Positions 10,535 through 51,044 of a stretch of 64,000 nucleotides of DNA are shown here, one piece after another. The notes under the pieces were generated by a model, which worked only from the letters and a program-made list of their open reading frames with translations, made no database searches and was not told where the DNA came from. Each line of letters opens with the position of its first letter. Positions within the stretch are counted from its first letter, which is position 1. The DNA comes from an uncultured delta proteobacterium (lineage in GTDB: Bacteria; Desulfobacterota; Syntrophia; Syntrophales; UBA2192): assembly GCA_963810965.1 (NCBI GenBank), contig CAWEPT010000012.1, positions 4,314 through 68,313 on the forward strand, written 5' to 3'. The translations under genes were made by a program, and so were the position numbers.

Positions 10535-10550
10535 TTATAGGGAGGGAACC

Positions 10551-19085: not shown

Positions 19086-19971
19086 ATGATGAACCGAATC
19101 ATGCGTAGTCTCTTTGCCTTCTTCCTTTTATTGTCTTTCTGGCGGCTGCGGGTCGAAAGAGGTTCCCCCGCCGCAGATGAAACCGCCGGCCAAGGTCGCC
19201 CTTGTTCTGGGGGCAGGAGCCTCGCGGGGATTCACGCATATCGGTGCTCTCAAAATCCTGGAGGCAAACCGGGTCCCGATCCACCTGATCGTCGGAACCA
19301 GCGCAGGAAGCTTTGTCGGGAGCCTGTCTGCGTACGGCTTCACAGCCTTCCAGATCCAGAGCCTCTCCTTTTCCATTGAGAAGGGAGATATCGTAGACCT
19401 GACCGTTCCGGACAACGGGTTCATCAAGGGCGAGAAACTGGAATCCTACGTCAACCACCTGGTGAACAACACCCCGATCGAAAAGATGCGAACCCCGCTC
19501 TACGTGGTGGCCACGGACATCCAGTCGGGAGAGGAAGTCGTGTTCGCCTCGGGCAACACGGGTACGGCGGTTCGGGCGAGTTGTTCCATCCCGGGGATTT
19601 TCCAGCCTGTGAAGATCGGTGCAAAAACTTACGTCGACGGGGGCCTCGTGAGCCCCGTGGCCGTCGACTATGCCAGGAAGATGGGTGCCGACCTCGTCAT
19701 CGCCGTGGACATCTCCACGGGGGCCAACAACGCGCCGCCCCAGACGACGATGGAAACGATCATGCAGTCCGTCGTCATCATGTATTCCAAGATCTCCCAG
19801 AACCAGCTTAGTCGTGCCGATGTCGTCATCCGGCCGAAGGTGAGCCACATCGGCTCGACGGACTTCTCCAAGCGTCACGAGGCCGTTTTGGAGGGGGAGA
19901 AGGCGGCGATGGAAGCGATGCCGGCGATCAAGGCGGCGCTGGACAGGCTGAGGGCAGAAGGAAGGCTCTGA
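19086..19971 (+). CDS. Patatin-like phospholipase lipoprotein (indel in the signal peptide)
   Basis: LGAGASRG, GTSAG nucleophile, DGG motif. Confidence 0.88.
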
Positions 19972-20038
19972 AAGCAGTGATGAAGTGCCTAAGTGCGGAA
20001 GTGTCTGAGTGAAGATAGAGAGAAGCTGAATTTGAGGC

Positions 20039-20303
20039 AAAAAAAATTGGTGGATGACGGACGGCTCATCCACCAATTCTATGTTAAAAGAGAGGTTGTT
20101 CCCCAACCCCCTCCCTTTTCTAACAGGGGGTCGGCGGATGGAAAGGAGGGAACCAAAAACCATCCGCCGATTCGCAAACCTAAAGCACGATCATTGATGC
20201 TGGGTGTCTATTTTATGAGACCTTTAGAGAGGATCTACCCTTCCTATTGGATAAATTCTTTATCTCTCTTATGTTAAAGGTTCCGTCGTCTAAAGGTCTC
20301 GAC
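20039..20303 (-). ncRNA. Candidate sigma54-dependent sRNA 1 with anti-SD loop
   Basis: Sigma54 promoter upstream; 12-bp 5' stem (20217-20228/20289-20300); 11-bp stem with loop UUUUUGGUUCCCUCCUUU; a third hairpin; 13-bp terminator with U-tract; no credible ORF. Confidence 0.7.
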
Positions 20304-20313
20304 ATTACCATAG

Positions 20314-20330
20314 AGCAATAACGATGCCAA
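20314..20330 (-). promoter_or_regulatory. Sigma54 (-24/-12) promoter
   Basis: Minus strand TTGGCATCGTTATTGCT. Confidence 0.8.
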
Positions 20331-20392
20331 TAAATATAAGTTAATGATTGCAGATAGTTATGAATTTATCGGCTGATCTTTCGCCGGCAAGA

Positions 20393-20497
20393 TGTGCGAC
20401 TATCGCACAAATTGAAGGCGGCCTGCCGTGACACGTCCTGAAAATCGATGCTTCGCCGAACGTGCCATATTCGCACAACATGTGCGAATATGGCACT
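20393..20497. promoter_or_regulatory. Three 17-bp dyads (candidate bEBP enhancer sites)
   Basis: TGTGCGACTATCGCACA (20393), CGTGCCATATTCGCACA (20461), TGTGCGAATATGGCACT (20481). Confidence 0.65.
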
Positions 20498-20503
20498 ACT
20501 CTT

Positions 20504-22681
20504 CTAAGTGCCCGTATCCCCGCCTTTTCCAACCTTTTTCAATTCACGAATCAGTGCGTACCGGGAGATATTGAGCAGGGCCGCAGCTTTCGTCTTGTTG
20601 CCTCCGCTCAACTCCAGTGCCCGCTCAAGAATCCGTTCTTTGATCTTGTTCGTGAGTTTTTCGACGGCAAGCTTGTAATCGATCCTGTCCGTTGCCGATG
20701 TGAGAGGGAGCAGATCATCGGCGGGAGCGACGGGATCCCGGGCGGCCGACACTTTTATTTCCGCAGGGATGTTCTCCGGCGTGATGAGACGGCCCACATC
20801 GCGAAGGATCATGATCCGCTCGATGATGTTTTTCAGTTCGCGGACATTCCCGGGCCAGGTGTACCGGCGGAGGATTTCCTCGGCTTCCTTGGCAAACCCT
20901 TTGACCTTCTTGTTGAACTTCCGGTTGAACTCCTCCACGTAGTTGCGTGCCAGCAGCAGGAGATCATCGCCGCGTTCGCGAAGCGGCGGCAGGATGATCG
21001 GCACGACACTGATGCGGTAGAAGAGGTCCTCGCGGAACGAACCTTCCGCCACCATCTTCGAAAGATCCCGGTTCGTCGCAAAGATGAACCGCACGTCGAC
21101 AGGGATGGACTCGTTTCCCCCGAGGCGCCGGATGTATCCGTCCTCGAGCATCCGGAGAAACTTCGCCTGCAGCGGAAGGCTCATGTCGCCGATCTCGTCG
21201 AGAAAGAGGGTCCCCCCGCTGGCATACTCGAGAAGACCGAGCTTGCGCTTCCGGGCATCGGTGAAGGCCCCCGCCTCGTAGCCGAAGAGTTCGCTTTCCA
21301 GGAGGGTCCCCGGGATGGCCGCGCAATTCACGTCGACAAAGCGTTTCTGGCTCCGGTGACTCTGACGGTGAATGGCGCGGGAAACGAGCTCTTTTCCGGT
21401 GCCACTCTCCCCCTGGATGAGGGTATTGGTGTCGTGCTTGGCCACCTCTTCGATGACGTGGAAGATGCCGACCATCTTCTTTGACTTGCCCAGGATGTTG
21501 TGAAACCCGAGAAGGATGTCTTCCCGCTCCTTGAGCTTCTCCACCTCCGTCTTGAGCGACTTCGCCTCGATGGAGAGGATGGAGTGCATGATGGCGCTGT
21601 CATAGGACGTGGCGGCATTATTGACGAGAATGTCGAGAACGTTGATCTGGTCCTGCGAGTAGATGCCCGTCCGCATCCCCAGCAGAAGAACCCCCTTGAA
21701 GCGGTCTTTCACTTTCAGGGGAATCGCCACCTCCGAGGGATAACCTTCGTAGAGGGGTTCGACGGCATCAGGCACCTCATCGGTCTCCTCATCGGTCTCC
21801 TCATCGGGCTTCTGCACCGTGATGGCGTCGCTGTCGAGGGCCCTGCGGATAATCGTCCGGTCGATCCGGAGACCATACTCGTTCTTGTCGTCGATGAACC
21901 CCCGCTCCCCGTCATTGATGAAGACGCGGTTCTTCTCGATGTCGAGGAAATAGATGAGGGCCTTTTCGGCCTTTCCGATCCGAAGGGCGCTCCGGATCAG
22001 GATCTCGTGGATCCGCTCGATCGAGTACGTGGAATTCAGGTCGGAAACGGCCTCCTGAAGGATGAGCAGCTGCTCGATCTTCTCCCGGTTGATCTCGAAG
22101 AGGCGCGTAATGTGGATGATGATGCTCACCTGGTTGGCAAAGGTGAGCAGGATGTCGATCTCGTCGGGAGAAAACCTGGTTTTTTCCTTGGTCCAGACGG
22201 CGATGATGCCGATGACGTCGTCTTCGATTTTCAGGGGCGCATAGAAGGTGGAGCCGCGTTTGTAGAAGGCGGAGATCTTTCGATCCGTCTCCGTCGTGCG
22301 GGGGTCCTTCTCCGAGTCCTCGAGGGCGATGTAATGGCCCGTCTTGGCCACCCGGGTCTCGAAACTGTCATGCTTCTTCAGGCTCAGGTGAACCGAGAAG
22401 GCCCTCTCGGCCTCCTCGTCGCTGTAATTCTTCACGACCCGCGTGATCAGGTTCTCCCGGCTTTCATCGACAAGGAGGATGATCCCCCGGTCGAACCCCA
22501 TGGAGTCGACGACTTCATCGAGGATCTTGCCGAGGATGTCCGCAACGCTGGAGGGGGCCGTCAGGAAGGTGCTGATCTGGAAGATTCCCTTGATCAGCTT
22601 GTCCTTGTCGATGCTGAAGGCCGAGGATGTCCTGACGGGAGGGGGGGGTATCGTTCCACCCTGTTCTATGATTCGCGCCAT
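20504..22681 (-). CDS. Sigma54-dependent enhancer-binding protein (GAF-GAF-AAA+-Fis HTH)
   Basis: GESGTGKE, ESELFG, GAFTDA, FLDEIG, WPGNVREL, GNKTKAAALL; two N-terminal GAF-like segments. Confidence 0.92.
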   Translation of the reverse strand: MARIIEQGGTIPPPPVRTSSAFSIDKDKLIKGIFQISTFLTAPSSVADILGKILDEVVDSMGFDRGIILLVDESRENLITRVVKNYSDEEAERAFSVHLSLKKHDSFETRVAKTGHYIALEDSEKDPRTTETDRKISAFYKRGSTFYAPLKIEDDVIGIIAVWTKEKTRFSPDEIDILLTFANQVSIIIHITRLFEINREKIEQLLILQEAVSDLNSTYSIERIHEILIRSALRIGKAEKALIYFLDIEKNRVFINDGERGFIDDKNEYGLRIDRTIIRRALDSDAITVQKPDEETDEETDEVPDAVEPLYEGYPSEVAIPLKVKDRFKGVLLLGMRTGIYSQDQINVLDILVNNAATSYDSAIMHSILSIEAKSLKTEVEKLKEREDILLGFHNILGKSKKMVGIFHVIEEVAKHDTNTLIQGESGTGKELVSRAIHRQSHRSQKRFVDVNCAAIPGTLLESELFGYEAGAFTDARKRKLGLLEYASGGTLFLDEIGDMSLPLQAKFLRMLEDGYIRRLGGNESIPVDVRFIFATNRDLSKMVAEGSFREDLFYRISVVPIILPPLRERGDDLLLLARNYVEEFNRKFNKKVKGFAKEAEEILRRYTWPGNVRELKNIIERIMILRDVGRLITPENIPAEIKVSAARDPVAPADDLLPLTSATDRIDYKLAVEKLTNKIKERILERALELSGGNKTKAAALLNISRYALIRELKKVGKGGDTGT

Positions 22682-22800
22682 GAATCCATCCCTTATTGGG
22701 TCCAGGGTAAAGGGTTAAGGGTACAGGGGACACGGGGAACCCGCTCATAATTCCCGTACATCCGATGGGCCATCTCCGCCAGGGACGGGAAATAACGCGG

Positions 22801-22853
22801 TTTATAGCAGGATGTTTCGCCTTTTTCAACCTATTCCGTGCGAAACTTGCACA
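22801..22853 (-). promoter_or_regulatory. Sigma70 promoter of the bEBP gene with an adjacent 17-bp dyad
   Basis: Minus strand TTGAAA-N17-TATAAA with extended -10 TG; dyad CGTGCGAAACTTGCACA at 22837-22853. Confidence 0.6.
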
Positions 22854-23063
22854 CAGGAAAAGCAGGGTATCGGGTCTAGGGTACTGGGTAAGAAAAAAAG
22901 AGGGGTCAAGAGAGCTTGATGAGCACTGGTTGAGTTCTGCAGGCTCGGGGATCGGGTCTCGGGTTTCAGGTGAAAGAAAAGCCCCTGAGCCGAAACGGCC
23001 GGGGCTTTGCTGATTTGATGCCTTTTCTTCCCTGTACCCTGTACCCTAGACCCTGTACCCGTA

Positions 23064-25094
23064 TTACGCCGTGTCGTAGCGGAGGAACTGCATGGTGAAA
23101 ATCGCCCTCCCCTGGGTGGCGGAGCGCAGGTCCGTCGAATACCCGAAGAGCGACCGCAGAGGCACATGCGCCCGGATCTCGGTGACGGGCCCCTTGGGCG
23201 CAACGGAATCCACTTCCCCTTTCCGGGCATTGATGTCGCCGATGACCTCGCCCATGAAGTCCCTGGGGGTGAGGATGTCGATCCGCATGATCGGCTCCAG
23301 GAGAACCGGGTCGGCCTTGGCGCAGCCATCCTTGAAGGCCGTTGCCGCAGCGATCTTGTAGCCCACGGGTGAGGCTTCCCCTTCCTTGAAGGACCCCCCG
23401 GCAATGCGTATTCTCACGTCCAGCACGGGATAACCCGCCAGGACACCGCTGAAAACGGCCTCCCCGAGAGACTCCTCGATGACGGGATGGAATTCCGCTG
23501 GAATGGTCTCGGGCGGAAGCTCGTTTTTGATCTCGATCCCGGCGCCCCTCGGCAGGGGCTCCAGGACGAGCTTCACGTGGCCGAAGTGCTTCTTCTCGCC
23601 CAGCTCGCGTTCGAAGCGCCCGTCGATCTCGACCGATTTCTGAATCGTCTCGCGGTAAACGACACGCGGTTTTCCCACGTTGACGTGGATGTTGTACTCG
23701 CGCAGGAGCCTGTCCACGACGATCTCGAGATGAAGCTCACCCATCCCCGAAATGATCGTCTGGGCCGTCTCCTCGTCATACTTCACCTTGAGGGTGGGGT
23801 CTTCCTCGGAGATCTTGGCAAGCGCCTCGGGCAGCTTGTCCTGATCGGCAGGGGTCTTCGCCTCGATGGCCTGGCCGATGACGGGGTTATAGAACTCGAT
23901 GGACTCCAGGATGATGGGCTTCGACTCCTGACAGAGCGTGTCCCCGGTGGTGCTGTCCTTGAGCCCCGCGATGGCGATGATGTCCCCCGCGCCGGCCACG
24001 TCGATGCGCTCGCGCTTATTGGCGTGCATCTTCAGCAGCCGGGCCACCTTTTCCTTTCTCCCTTTCGTGGCGTTGAAGACCTCGTCGCCTGCTTTCAGGA
24101 GCCCCGAGTAGATGCGGGCGTAGGTGATCTTGCGGCCCTCGATCATGGACACCTTGAAGGCCAGCGCCGAGAAGGGCTCCCTGTCGTTTGCCGCTCGACT
24201 CTCCTCGGTCTTGGTGACGGGGTTCAGCCCCTTCACGGGCGGGACGTCCTCCGGCGACGGGAGGAAATCGATGACGGCATCCAGGATGGGCTGAACCCCC
24301 TTGTTTCGCAGCGCCGCCCCGCACAGGACGGGCACGAGCTTGAGCGACACGGTGGCCTTGCGGATGGCCCGGATCAACTCGGCATCCGGGATGGGGATCT
24401 CGCCCAGGTACTTGTCGGCGATTTCGTCGTCGACCTCGGCAAGCGTCTCCAGCAGTTTTTCCCGCCTGGCCTGCGCCTCGTCACGGAAGTCCCCCGGAAC
24501 CTCGGATACGTCGAAGGCCGCCCCCAGGGTGCCCTCCTGCCAGGTGATGAGCCGCATGCGGATCAGATCGACGATGCCCCTGAAATTCTCCGCCTCGCCG
24601 AGGGGAACCTGGACGGGCAGCGGCCTGGACGCAAACCTCTCCTGCATCATCCCGATGGCCCCGAAGTAGTCGGCGCCGATGCGGTCCATCTTGTTGATGA
24701 AGGCGATCTTGGGGACCCCGTATTTGTCGGCCTGGTGCCACACGGTCTCGGACTGGGGCTCGACTCCGTCCACGGCCGAAAAGACGACCACGGCCCCGTC
24801 GAGAACCCTGAGGCTGCGCTCCACCTCGATGGTGAAGTCCACGTGCCCCGGCGTGTCGATGATGTGGATCTCGTGGTTTTTCCAGTCGCAGGTGGTCACG
24901 GCGGAGGTGATCGTGATGCCGCGTTCCTGCTCCTGGGGCATCCAGTCCATGACGGCCTCGCCGTCGTGCACCTCGCCCATCTTGTAGGACTTGCCCGTGT
25001 AGAAAAGAATCCGCTCCGTCACGGTCGTCTTTCCCGCGTCGATGTGGGCGACAACGCCGATGTTACGGATTCTTGATAGCTTCACTCTTGCCAT
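23064..25094 (-). CDS. fusA: Elongation factor G (copy outside the str operon)
   Basis: [43 protein letters not shown]. Confidence 0.93.
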
Positions 25095-29420: not shown

Positions 29421-29749
29421 ATCACCGGCCCTCGTCAGTCAGGCTTGTTTCCTGCCCAAAAATATCGGCCGAAAATATCTGGTAAAAAGCGCGCAAATTG
29501 GATATAGAAGCCAAGGGTTCGGCGATTGAACGCCGTTAGACAGGGTCATTCCACCATGCATCCGGAGATCTCCGGATGCCCAACCGTATCTGCCCGGGGT
29601 GTACAAGGAGGGGCTTGCATCCTTACCGGCAGCACCTCCTGACGCATATATTCCGTTATTGTTTCCTTATTACTCTTATTGCATACCGCCCTGCCCGGCT
29701 GCGGCCGGGGTGCAGGGCCTCACAGGATTTGTGGAAAGGAGGTTTTATC

Positions 29750-31109
29750 ATGCTCAGGCGGATTGCATCCGTTTTTCACGTATTTCATGAGGCACTACCT
29801 TCCCGATGCCTACCTCTTCGCCATCCTGCTGACGTTCCTCTCGGCGGTCCTCGCCCTGATCTTCACGCCGACGGACGTCATGAAGATGATCATGGCCTGG
29901 GGAAACGGCATCTACGGGATCGTGGCCTTCGCCATGCAGATGATCCTGATCCTCGTGACGGGCCACTGCCTGGCCCTCACCCCGGCGGTCAAGAGGGCGC
30001 TGGTCTGGATCGCCGGCAAGGGCGACACGCCCATCAAGGCCGGGATGATCGTCTCCTTCGTGGCGGGCGTGGGCTCCTGGCTCAACTGGGGCTTCGGCCT
30101 CATCGTCGGAGGCCTTTTGGCCCTCGAGGTGGCCAAGCGCACGAAGAAGGTGGATTACCCCTACCTCATCGCGGCGGCCTACAGCGGGTTCGTGGTCTGG
30201 CACCAGGGCTTGTCCGGCTCGATCCCCCTGGTCTGCGCCACCTCGAAGCACGCGCAGAACTTCATCGAGAAGATCACCGGGTCGCCGGTTCCCGTCGTCC
30301 GACACCATCTTTGCCATCCTACAACCTCATTGCGGCGCTGCTGATCATCTTCACACTTCCCGTCCTGTACGCGATGATCCATCCGAAGCCGGAAGAGGTC
30401 CAGGAGATCAGCGAGGCCAAGCTCAAGGAGATGGCCGACGAGACGATCCACGAGGAAAGGCCGGCCAACCCCACCCTGGCCGAGAGGATCGACCACAGCT
30501 ACGCGATCAACATCGTCTTCGGCCTCATGGGGCTTGCCTACCTGGTGAACCACTTCATGACCAAGGGCATGGACCTCAACCTCAACATCGTCATCTTCCT
30601 GTTCTTCATCGTCGGCGTCCTGCTCCACGGAAAGCCCGTCAACTACATCAAGGCCGTCAACACCGCCATCAGAGGGGGCCGGCGGCATCGCCCTGCAGTT
30701 CCCGCTCTACGGCGGCATCCAGGGGATCATGATCGGGACGGGGCTCGGGAAGGTCATCGCCACCTGGTTCGTGGCCATCTCGACGCCGGTGACGTTCTAC
30801 ATGCTCCAGTTCTGGGCGGGCGGGCTCATCAACATGTTCGTCCCCTCCGGCGGCGGTCAGTGGCTCGTCCAGGGCCCGATCACCATCGAGGCGGCCAAGA
30901 CCCTGGGGATCGACATGACCAGGTCCGCCATGATGGTGGCCTGGGGAGACCAGTGGACGAACATGATCCAGCCCTTCTGGGCGCTGCCGCTTCTCGGACT
31001 GGCGGGGCTCTCGGCCAGGGCCGTCATGGGCTACACGACGATGACCCTTCTGTGGAGCGGCGTGATCCTGTCGGTCATCGCCCTGCTCATGGGCTATGGG
31101 GTCATGTAA
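29750..31109 (+). CDS. atoE: Short-chain fatty acid transporter, AtoE family (several indels)
   Basis: LPDAYLFAILLT, FAMQMILILVTG, NWGFGL, QFPLYGGI, FVPSGGGQW, WGDQWTNMIQPFWALP. Confidence 0.88.
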
Positions 31110-31137
31110 TCTCAAGCTTCCATTCAGCGCATGGCAT

Positions 31138-31171
31138 AAAAAAGCCGGCTCCTTCGGGGGCCGGCTTTTTT
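31138..31171. terminator. Bidirectional intrinsic terminator
   Basis: AAAAAAGCCGGCTCC-TTCG-GGGGCCGGCTTTTTT. Confidence 0.85.
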
Positions 31172-31254
31172 AATCTTTCAGACGTTGCCTGTACAGAAGG
31201 ATCAATACGATCGATTCTCTGCTTTTCATGGTTTCAGGGATGCGCGGAAATGAA

Positions 31255-31404
31255 TCAGAGGGCCTTTGTCGCCCAGGAGGGCAAGACGGCCTTCGACGGT
31301 TTTGCGGAAGAGGCAGAGAGGTAGACCAACGCGAGGACGAGGATTGCCGGGTTGGCGAGGCAGCGCTTGATCCGTTTGTCCATGTATCCTTGCAGCGTTG
31401 ACAT
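31255..31404 (-). CDS. Possible 49-aa hydrophobic peptide downstream of sRNA 2
   Basis: MSTLQGYMDKRIKRCLANPAILVLALVYLSASS...; only a weak SD (AGGAAG). Confidence 0.25.
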   Translation of the reverse strand: MSTLQGYMDKRIKRCLANPAILVLALVYLSASSAKPSKAVLPSWATKAL

Positions 31405-31418
31405 GATCGAGCTTCCTG

Positions 31419-31547
31419 TTTGAAAAAGGTATCGGTGGATGGAAAGGAGGGACCAAAACCATCCACCGATCAACCTCTTTCAAATGAGCGCCGGGAAATA
31501 TTGGGGTCTGTCAGGGTCTTGGGTATTTCCCGGAACGTCTCAGTTGA
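31419..31547 (-). ncRNA. Candidate sigma54-dependent sRNA 2 with anti-SD loop
   Basis: Sigma54 promoter; 10-bp 5' stem (31491-31500/31524-31533); long hairpin with loop UUUUGGUCCCUCCUUU, homologous to sRNA 1. Confidence 0.68.
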
Positions 31548-31557
31548 AGTAAGATTG

Positions 31558-31573
31558 AGCAATAAGGATGCCA
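31558..31573 (-). promoter_or_regulatory. Sigma54 (-24/-12) promoter
   Basis: Minus strand TGGCATCCTTATTGCT, 15/16 identical to the promoter at 20314. Confidence 0.8.
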
Positions 31574-49840: not shown

Positions 49841-51044
49841 ATGAATGCAGAAAGACAAAAACGGCAGGCGGTAACGGCGAGTTGCGGGGTGGAGGGCTTG
49901 AGCCACCTCAAAACCTTTTACTCCATCCCCCACTTCCGGATCGGCGGGACCTACGACCTCGACGATCCCTCGTCCTGGGAATCGGGCGGCACGGGCGGCG
50001 TGACCCTGGAATCCCTCGGGGAGGGCCCCCTGCGCACGGCCTGCATCGCCGTCGGAACCCCTCACCGGGATGCGGACGGGCTACATCGACAACGCCGTCC
50101 TCTTCAGCCCCTTTTACTCCGGCGATGCGGGCCTCATGTACTTCTACTGGTACCGAGGCCAGGGGGCAAACGACTTCTGCGGCGGCCCCGTCGTGGGTCC
50201 CGGGGAGCTGATCGACACGGATCGCTACTACGTCATCTTCCTCGATGCCCTCGGCCTCTGGGGCGCCGGCAAGCCGAGCGACGGGCTCGGCCTCAAGTTC
50301 CCGCAATACAGCATCATGGACTGCGTCCAGGCCAACTACCGGCTGCTTCGGGACCACCTGAAGGTGAGCCGCGTGAAGCTTGCCACGGGGGCCTCCATGG
50401 GGGCCATCCAGAGCTATCTCTGGGCCCTGATGCACCCGGGGTTTGTCGAGGCCATCATGCCCATGGGAGGCGTCACGGAAACGGACGCCAACCTGCGCTG
50501 GCTCTTCCGGCTCATGTCGGCGGCCATCGAGAGCGACCCCGCATGGAGAGAGACGGGGGGCGATTACTACCACCTGCCGAAGGAGCAGCACCCGCACCGG
50601 GGCGTCATGTTCGGCTGGTCCATCCTGTTCCACTCGGCCATGAGCTTCGACCATCGCATCCAGATGGGCTGGGACGAGGTCCAGAAGGAAGCCTTTGCCT
50701 GGGATCCCCACGGGAAAGGAGGGGCTGCTCCTCGTTCCCTACGGCCGCAATTACGACGCCGTCGACCTGCTGTACCGCAATCGGGCGGGAGAATACCCTG
50801 AACGTGACGGGGGAGCTCCATCGCATCCGGGCAAGAACCCTCATCCTGCACGTGGCCAACGATCACTGGGTCCGGCTGTGCATGGCCCAGACAAGCCCAG
50901 GAGCGTATTGCCGGCGCGAGGCTCTGCTCCTTTGAACACCCCCTGGGTCACTATGCCCTCTTCCGGGCGCCAAATGAGTTCCGCGACACAATCAAAACGT
51001 TTCTCGAAGGCTCCGCACCGACAGCAACAGGGAGAGAAGCATGA
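49841..51044 (+). CDS. Alpha/beta hydrolase, homoserine O-acyltransferase-like (several indels)
   Basis: IDTDRYYVI, GASMG nucleophile, Asp in ANDHW, His in LGHY. Confidence 0.75.

Follow-up and report, generated by a model that had tools for sequence, protein, structure and literature searches.

A predicted sigma-54-dependent small RNA with an anti-Shine-Dalgarno hairpin, from an RNA family conserved across the order Syntrophales

The locus and its features

The stretch of DNA analysed here, hereafter the window, comprises 64,000 nucleotides (64 kb) of contig CAWEPT010000012.1 from an uncultured bacterium of the order Syntrophales (assembly GCA_963810965.1), and carries a gene for a 725-aa sigma-54 activator, a bacterial enhancer-binding protein (bEBP), followed by a compact RNA unit of about 265 nt that is the subject of this study. 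All coordinates refer to the whole window, and the RNA unit, its promoter and the bEBP gene all lie on the minus strand (Table 1). As judged by its signals and its conservation, the region 20039–20303 is most likely a genuine stand-alone RNA gene, whose central hairpin displays an anti-Shine-Dalgarno (anti-SD) motif in its loop and belongs to a family that recurs throughout the order. Methanogens have key partners in the Syntrophales (Syntrophus, Smithella and relatives), an order for which, to our knowledge, almost nothing is known about post-transcriptional gene regulation.

Table 1 Features of the RNA locus and of the second family member in the window
Feature	Position	Strand	Description
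Sigma-54 activator gene (bEBP, 725 aa)	20504..22681	-	GAF sensor region, AAA+ sigma-54 interaction domain, Fis-type helix-turn-helix
Palindrome A, TCGCAC-N5-GTGCGA, candidate activator-binding site	20471..20487		Just past the bEBP stop codon
Palindrome B, TGTGCG-N5-CGCACA, candidate activator-binding site	20393..20409		Some 65-80 nt ahead of the -24 element
Sigma-54 promoter TGGCATCGTTATTGCT (-24 GG, -12 GC)	20314..20329	-	Exact consensus
Predicted transcription start	20303	-	G20303, inferred from -12 GC spacing
5' hairpin, perfect 12-bp basal stem	20217..20300	-	GAGACCUUUAGA (20300-20289) pairs with UCUAAAGGUCUC (20228-20217)
Small second helix (weak)	20175..20210	-	From minimum-free-energy fold and alignment consensus fold; 9 pairs, 0 compensatory changes
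Anti-SD hairpin (HP-A)	20131..20170	-	11-bp stem, 18-nt loop with CCCUCCUUUCC at 20140-20150
Middle (third) hairpin	20082..20125	-	AAAAGGGAGG pairs with CCUCUCUUUU; 5' arm purine-rich and SD-like, 3' arm pyrimidine-rich
AU-rich linker (second TTTAACATA), intrinsic terminator (HP-B) and U-tract	20039..20088	-	From terminator scan
sRNA 2	31432..31573	-	Promoter 31558-31573, near-identical to that of sRNA 1; anti-SD hairpin 31432-31470

The RNA unit (sRNA 1) begins behind one of only two exact matches to the sigma-54 consensus TGGCAY-N5-TTGCW in the window, and no sigma-70-like promoter was found in 19900–20600. The predicted start follows from the standard spacing between the -12 GC of a sigma-54 promoter and the first transcribed base. 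The spacer between the bEBP stop codon and the promoter is 174 nt long, and across orthologs of the locus a fixed 172–175 nt separate the stop codon from the -24 element. On the far side of the unit lies a patatin-like phospholipase gene (19114–19971) in convergent orientation, and the RNA therefore cannot be a leader. A 354-aa open reading frame (ORF) that overlaps the unit, at 19099–20163, was rejected as a gene: no Pfam family matches it, and it is antisense to the patatin gene.

The RNA unit folds into a stable set of hairpins and ends at a terminator

We folded the ~265-nt unit and compared it with shuffled sequences. Its folding energy of -101.4 kcal/mol compares with -71.95 ± 4.64 for the shuffles (z -6.35), none of which (0/200) was as good. 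HP-A (-23.1 kcal/mol, z -5.94) was matched by 0/200 shuffles, the 5' hairpin reached -27.8 kcal/mol (z -3.55), and the middle hairpin reached -18.3 kcal/mol (z -2.65) with 3/200 shuffles as good. A run of C residues (20126–20130) stands directly after HP-A. The terminator extends from 20080 to 20043 with 15 pairs, is followed by an 8-U tract to 20039 (z -6.95), and is the only terminator-like site in 19900–20600.

A preliminary description of this DNA, made from the letters alone, had proposed four hairpins, the first with a perfect 12-bp stem directly behind the start. This stem was found at the positions given in Table 1, and all four hairpins are present; the count has to be raised, as both the fold of the single sequence and that of the alignment add a fifth, weaker helix (20210–20175). 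The terminator with its U-tract, given there as 13 bp, is likewise present. Two repeats noted there also hold. The 9-mer TTTAACATA occurs at 20278–20270 and 20088–20080 and nowhere else in the 64 kb, where 0.01 copies are expected, and the terminator stem GGUGGAUG/CAUCCACC is the same as that of the sRNA 2 hairpin at 31470–31432.

The unit is conserved from start to terminator and is non-coding

The whole unit is present in 10 of 17 genomes of the same genus at 87–96% identity, and the resulting alignment of 11 copies has a mean column identity of 93%. Promoter, body and terminator are all kept in these genomes, the promoter at 88–100% identity across the 10 orthologs. Identity to the window copy changes in steps along the locus: it is 76–94% over the last 300 nt of the bEBP gene, 58–86% in the spacer upstream of the promoter and 36–75% in the 12 nt that separate the -12 element from the RNA body, then rises to 89–98% in the RNA body and drops to 45–53% in the 100 nt past the U-tract. 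Conservation therefore begins at the predicted start, ends at the terminator and exceeds that of the neighbouring coding DNA. More precisely, it sets in 2–3 nt past the predicted start, at CGAGACC. The proposal of the preliminary description that the region is an independent promoter-to-terminator unit thus gains support from conservation that tracks the predicted ends.

The RNA unit is non-coding. The orthologs do not share the ATG at 20305, and indels of 1–3 nt in the genus alignment break every frame, so that a coding potential was rejected. Contigs assembled from four RNA-labelled libraries, from four studies, cover 20036–20279 at a likeness of at least 88%. None of them extends upstream of 20279, and their cover of the bEBP gene consists of a conserved AAA+ stretch that is matched by other organisms. 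Such cover gives no ends, strand or level, and gaps in it are not readable as a lack of transcription; it is a weak hint that the unit may be expressed.

The anti-SD hairpin defines an RNA family across Syntrophales

When 185,579 species genomes were scanned for an exact pattern, at least 118 stretches matched, and among the matches listed nearly all titles were Syntrophales, Syntrophaceae, Syntrophus or Deltaproteobacteria metagenome-assembled genomes (MAGs), Syntrophus buswellii DM-2 included. In a set of 121 distinct copies of the hairpin, pairing of the 11-bp stem amounts to 97.4%, and 5 of the 11 pairs have changed on both sides; 0/500 shuffles reach the covariation score. The search pattern largely sets the inner six pairs (13–18), so that the outer five carry most of the test, although covariation is seen also at columns 15/44, a pair for which the pattern allowed both alternatives.

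A covariance model of the anti-SD hairpin (R1) was then applied to genomes inside and outside the order. In the window's own genome (G000) it gave three same-strand matches: HP-A at 68.4 bits (E 2e-17), the sRNA 2 hairpin at 59.5 bits and the sRNA 1 terminator at 29.6 bits (E 2e-5). R1 matched 123 of 151 Syntrophales genomes, in 22 of 24 families; there was no match in family f11 (0/3 genomes) or f15 (0/10). Among 146 genomes of the phylum from outside the order, seven gave weak matches of 25–32 bits, which were not counted as members. The C-rich loop motif is kept in 120 of 124 R1 matches, and in 52 of 77 related loci the 500 nt upstream of the hairpin contain a sigma-54 motif, as against 0/77 on the reverse strand and 0/77 in a window 1–1.5 kb upstream. 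Alignments of homologues, named as a check in the preliminary description, found the unit kept in the genus and the hairpin in the order, and the role given there to the hairpin at 20131–20170 as the working part is supported by its order-wide conservation, its covariation and the likeness of its loop to the 16S rRNA tail described below.

At gathering score, Rfam 15 matched only a tRNA in the window; with permissive filters, the best match in 19900–20600 scored 21 bits against a cut-off of 42, and Qrr, CrcZ and Pxr were not matched. A literature search found no publication on small RNAs of Syntrophales or Syntrophus. The hairpin thus marks an undescribed, order-wide RNA family of a regulatory kind already known elsewhere. 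A third exact CCCTCCTTTCC site in the window, at 50713–50723, lies in coding-like sequence with neither a hairpin nor a promoter around it and was dropped as a further member.

The window RNA is a derived form of a two-hairpin core

We took 80 related loci with 2.5-kb flanks. In 41 of these 80 (counted from the table of matches), two same-strand R1 matches of at least 40 bits lie ~95–105 nt apart, and one genome (G022) has three in tandem. A core alignment was built from 38 two-hairpin units and the 3' half of the window RNA. Its plan runs from HP-A with its anti-SD loop through a C-run and a middle hairpin (CUGRRRGG ... CCYUUCAG) to an AU-rich linker (UUUAYAUA), HP-B, which also has an anti-SD loop and across the family usually one extra U in it, and a U-tract. 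In this three-hairpin core 14 of 26 consensus pairs are compensatory, and the middle hairpin is among those with compensatory changes.

The window RNA is collinear with the core base for base: its third hairpin corresponds to the middle hairpin, its second TTTAACATA to the AU-rich linker, and its terminator to HP-B, in which the stem is kept and the loop motif is lost. The window copy is apparently a derived form, with a terminator that is a degenerate copy of the hairpin module. The module duplication suspected earlier from the shared stem sequence is supported both by the R1 score of the terminator and by the full second anti-SD hairpin that stands at its place in the loci with two matches. 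The first ~130 nt, that is the 5' hairpin and the weak helix, gave no BLAST match outside the genus. In genus g2 (L014–L017) the RNA is short, with a promoter-to-hairpin distance of 58 nt.

Of 43 two-hairpin units, 35 have an ORF of 62–95 aa that ends 0–33 nt ahead of HP-A. Its product is acidic and lysine-rich with a mean identity of 25%, carries the motifs E-[YF]-[ED]-F-F-[LI]-S and D-Q-S-x-x-F-F-L-P-[ED], and has no Pfam match, DUF1127 included. Among 19 other families sampled, a profile of this ORF found copies beside hairpins in seven, with three in a single genome (G027). The same profile found none in the window's genome and 17 genomes of its genus (0/18), and there is none in the window unit. 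The hairpin RNA is kept at high identity here in the absence of the ORF, which speaks for the RNA itself as the functional product in this genus; the window RNA would be an ORF-less derivative of the order-wide family.

Upstream of the small ORF, three loci (L028, L061 and L037) share a conserved GGCGGUUGGUUG(U/A)UGGUUU about 15–30 nt ahead of the ATG, a stretch that resembles the anti-SD hairpins in their 5' arm and the beginning of their loop. It could be a competitor for the 3' arm of the hairpins, in a possible interaction between the 5' and 3' untranslated regions (UTRs). The promoters of the same three loci are variant sigma-54 types (TGGTAT..., TGGCTC...).

These data bear on whether the unit is a gene of its own at all. 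It might be the 3' UTR of the bEBP mRNA, as the bEBP stop codon lies 174 nt upstream on the same strand and no U-tract terminator intervenes, or a decaying remnant of a small-ORF transcript without function, given that elsewhere the hairpins form the 3' UTR of the small ORF. Between the bEBP gene and the RNA, though, lie a consensus sigma-54 promoter and conserved palindromes, and conservation falls in the spacer before the start, to reach a level past it that the coding sequence does not attain. Moreover, three single-contig genomes of genus g22 (G060, G077 and G091) keep both the RNA and the bEBP at 0.14–2.7 Mb from each other. A remnant would not be expected to retain 89–98% identity across the genus between flanks of ~50%. 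We consider either version of this explanation very improbable.

The RNA is linked to the adjacent sigma-54 activator

The protein encoded upstream matches the Pfam families Sigma54_activat (1e-68), GAF_2 (3e-22, in two stretches), AAA_lid_14 and HTH_8, and its translation contains GESGTGKE as Walker A and a GAFTDA loop. Against NCBIfam it had no equivalog at or above the cut-off, and its sensor region gave a weak GAF match alone against PDB sequences (1ykd, E 0.004). An ortholog of this activator, 58–98% identical and nearly full length, lies directly upstream of the RNA on the same strand in 57 of the 80 loci, and the sensor region (residues 1–389) was found in 123 of the 151 Syntrophales genomes, 119 of which also have the RNA. 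The gene for sigma-54 itself, rpoN, was found in 21/21 genomes (the window's own and 20 relatives).

Two palindromes stand at fixed distances between the bEBP gene and the promoter, each with one perfect match in the 1.5-Mb assembly. Both half-sites of palindrome A are kept in 11/11 genus orthologs around a variable 5-nt centre. Palindrome B is recognisable in 11/11 as well, again with a variable centre and with 1–2 half-site bases changed in about half of them, and sites of the form TGTGC-N7-GCACA, which resemble it, occur in related loci upstream of sRNA-2-type promoters. A pair of palindromes upstream of the promoter is the usual anatomy of a site pair for an enhancer-binding protein, and we infer that palindromes A and B are putative binding sites of the adjacent activator.

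Three further observations concern this neighbourhood. Upstream of the bEBP gene, at 22838–22853 on the minus strand, the sequence TGTGCAAGTTTCGCAC is similar to the half-sites of both palindromes and may be a candidate autoregulatory site of the activator. Repeats of about 7 bases, G-rich or C-rich (GGGTACA type), lie at ~23035–23065 and 22690–22760 on the same strand, after the stop codon of an EF-G-like gene and ahead of the bEBP start. The order of bEBP gene, RNA and convergent patatin-like phospholipase gene is kept within the family, as seen in L014 and L016.

Proposed mechanism and the evidence for and against it

The loop of HP-A, UUGGUUCCCUCCUUUCC, agrees with the 3' tail of the organism's own 16S rRNA (contig C11) at 14 of 18 positions, with CCUCCUUUC common to both, and ensemble folding predicts most of its bases to be unpaired (p ≥0.87). 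The RNA chaperone Hfq (PF17209) was found in 0/21 genomes of the order, 11 of them of high quality, while control genomes did match; the Syntrophales lineage may lack Hfq, which fits a seed that is held open in a loop. By analogy with the systems discussed below, the RNA most likely pairs with Shine-Dalgarno regions and would silence mRNAs by covering their ribosome-binding sites.

In the explanation that we favour, the GAF-type activator encoded upstream would bind the two palindromes past its own stop codon. Upon a signal at its sensor domains it would drive RpoN-RNA polymerase from the promoter at 20314–20329, and transcription would run from near 20303 to the hairpin and U-tract at 20039–20080. 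The HP-A loop, displaying CCCUCCUUUCC, would then pair with the Shine-Dalgarno regions of targets and block the loading of ribosomes. As for the history of the family, the second hairpin would have lost its loop motif in this lineage, and a genus-specific 5' extension of ~130 nt would have been gained. Taken as a whole, an activator-driven non-coding RNA of ~265 nt with a loop seed, derived from an order-wide family, is in our judgement probable, with considerable room left for doubt.

Several observations weigh against this explanation. First, covariation is scarce in the genus alignment, with 2 of 78 predicted pairs compensatory, both in the basal stem of the 5' hairpin; the number is low because the genus copies differ little. 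Second, one of the RNA-library contigs also spans the convergent patatin gene, which leaves DNA carry-over or read-through possible. Third, the co-occurrence of RNA and sensor domain has to be read with care. When the tables for the 151 genomes were compared by hand, both were present in 119 and neither in 24, with four genomes discordant in each direction (G038, G116, G118 and G141 with the RNA alone; G112, G123, G128 and G149 with the sensor domain alone), a count in which related genomes are not independent and in which adjacent genes vanish together from incomplete assemblies, so that scattered co-absences count for little. More telling, and in favour of the link, are the joint absence of RNA and activator from 13 mostly complete genomes of families f11 and f15 and the retention of both in the three g22 genomes in which they lie far apart. 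Fourth, a target scan over ~44,700 candidate starts, by duplex energy and by exact complementarity, returned generic strong SD sites only. The best matches, of 11–12 nt in a genome that is 68% complete, fell, for example, on contigs C8, C16, C19, C26 and C5 and at window position 10541 and have no common theme, and the bEBP's own translation start showed, as judged by eye, no convincing complementarity. Finally, conservation of the stem sequence GGUGGAUGG/CCAUCCACC goes far beyond what pairing alone would demand, a hint of a further partner, for example a protein.

This last point leads to a different reading, in which the invariant hairpin imitates the 16S tail as a decoy and either binds a protein or ribosome factor or competes globally for SD sequences. 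The loop's likeness to the 16S tail would suit such a mimic. So would the stem, which is nearly fixed throughout the order, with 5 of 11 pairs invariant and the others changing only in a compensatory manner, whereas the stems of the alpha-proteobacterial cuckoo RNAs vary freely according to excerpts of PMC4615179. A small protein encoded upstream of a cuckoo RNA binds the hairpin RNA in the portion of PMC8034643 drawn on here, and most Syntrophales copies likewise come after a small conserved ORF. Part of the stem invariance, on the other hand, is due to the search pattern, in which pairs 13–18 were fixed; the window genus has no small ORF, and a binding protein is not known. Anti-SD seeds carried in loops are, furthermore, a well-documented base-pairing device. 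We regard the decoy as unlikely, although it merits attention.

A related and bolder view would combine the mimicry with the history of the family. The ancestral RNA would have been the 3' UTR of an mRNA that encoded the small acidic FFLS/FFLP protein under sigma-54 control, in the way that CcsR RNAs come from the ccaF1 mRNA. Forms that were released from it or that lack the ORF, the window RNA among them, would now throttle translation initiation under the control of the GAF sensor, by competing genome-wide for strong SD sites or by titrating a factor with affinity for the 16S tail. If this were true, slow-growing, energy-limited syntrophs would possess an RNA-level brake on protein synthesis; we think it unlikely.

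The preliminary description had also suggested an internal switch, by which the SD-like 5' arm of the middle hairpin would alternate between its own 3' arm and the anti-SD loop and so mask the seed. Energetically this is possible, as the duplex of loop and arm reaches -18.3 kcal/mol compared with -19.0 for the middle hairpin, and the polarity of a mostly purine-rich 5' arm and a mostly pyrimidine-rich 3' arm is family-wide and not demanded by pairing alone. Folding of the pseudoknot-free ensemble does not favour it, as the loop stays free (p ≥0.87) and the arm is paired within the middle hairpin (p 0.86). There is no evident trigger either, and the polarity could equally mean a further masked anti-SD element. 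The switch can be called possible at most, and we give it a small chance. Pairing of the loop seed with Shine-Dalgarno regions remains the reading with the best support.

A second family member in the window

The hairpin of sRNA 2 folds at -28.7 kcal/mol (z -5.14). It is preceded by a leader of ~105 nt, and a good terminator is absent from 31255–31573. About 32 nt past the hairpin begins a 49-aa ORF, which is conserved as a peptide of 47–49 aa (MS..YMDKRIKRCL.NPA.LVLALVYL...) in 7 of 10 related loci; its 3' part runs into the end of a 582-aa ORF of convergent orientation (29576–31324). sRNA 2 may be a leader or a dual-function RNA instead of a free small RNA (sRNA).

Significance and comparison with known systems

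The RNA family described here extends across an order, is easily recognised and is tied to one sigma-54 activator. It would offer a route into a signalling pathway that leads from a GAF ligand through the activator and the RNA to translation. The family is suited to RNA family databases, where it would improve the annotation of many MAGs.

Sigma-54 activators that drive one or several sibling sRNAs are known from Qrr/LuxO in Vibrio and CrcZ/CbrB in Pseudomonas. One sRNA gene adjoins the activator gene there. Qrr and CrcZ act with Hfq, CrcZ as a sponge for Hfq/Crc, and their sequences and structures are unrelated to the Syntrophales RNA, which neither Rfam family matched.

Within the same broad group of anaerobes, the excerpts available from PMC4641369 list sigma-54-dependent non-coding RNAs (ncRNAs) of Desulfovibrio vulgaris downstream of DVU0653 and DVU0679 and upstream of DVU2357. 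The likeness is that of an enhancer-binding protein whose listed target is the adjoining ncRNA gene. No homology with the Syntrophales RNA is shown, and R1 gave only its 25–32-bit matches in 7/146 genomes outside the order.

Pairing by anti-SD motifs has precedents. For NfeR1/alpha-r14 of Sinorhizobium, the passages cited from PMC10746234 show experimentally that unpaired anti-SD motifs occlude the ribosome-binding sites of several mRNAs. NfeR1 is also part of a circuit with a sigma-54-type regulator, NtrC; there, however, NtrC represses and LsrB drives transcription, the motifs are three and redundant, and no sequence relation exists (PMC10746234, same passages). Anti-SD base pairing is proposed for the cuckoo RNAs and for RNAIII in the section consulted of PMC4615179, according to which C-rich UCCC loops of RNAIII and other staphylococcal sRNAs start the pairing with the ribosome-binding site. 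RNAIII differs from the Syntrophales RNA in motif, promoter control and lineage.

The closest likeness is to the cuckoo RNAs, including CcsR1-4 with CcaF1, of Rhodobacter and Rhizobiales, which in the parts of PMC4615179 and PMC8034643 used here consist of 2–4 adjacent hairpins with the same anti-SD-like loop motif and occur in several copies per genome. As PMC8034643 describes CcsR in those parts, an alternative-sigma promoter is followed by a small ORF, the hairpins and a terminator hairpin, and the mRNA's 3' UTR gives rise to the sRNAs. The Syntrophales core, with two anti-SD hairpins behind an ORF of 62–95 aa, has the same layout. The details differ: the loop motif is CCUCCUCCC in cuckoo/CcsR and CCCUCCUUU(U) in Syntrophales; the stems are variable in the former and nearly invariant in the latter; CcsR is transcribed from an RpoHI/HII promoter, whereas the Syntrophales promoter is of the sigma-54 type with a dedicated adjacent activator; the small protein of Syntrophales matches neither DUF1127 nor any other Pfam family; CcsR is bound by Hfq, which was not found in the Syntrophales genomes searched; and the phylum is another one. 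The window copy, with one motif-bearing loop and no ORF, falls outside the definition of a cuckoo RNA given in these excerpts. The family as a whole would represent a second, independent case of a small protein gene with repeated anti-SD hairpins, beyond the alpha-proteobacteria, which suggests that this layout arose more than once.

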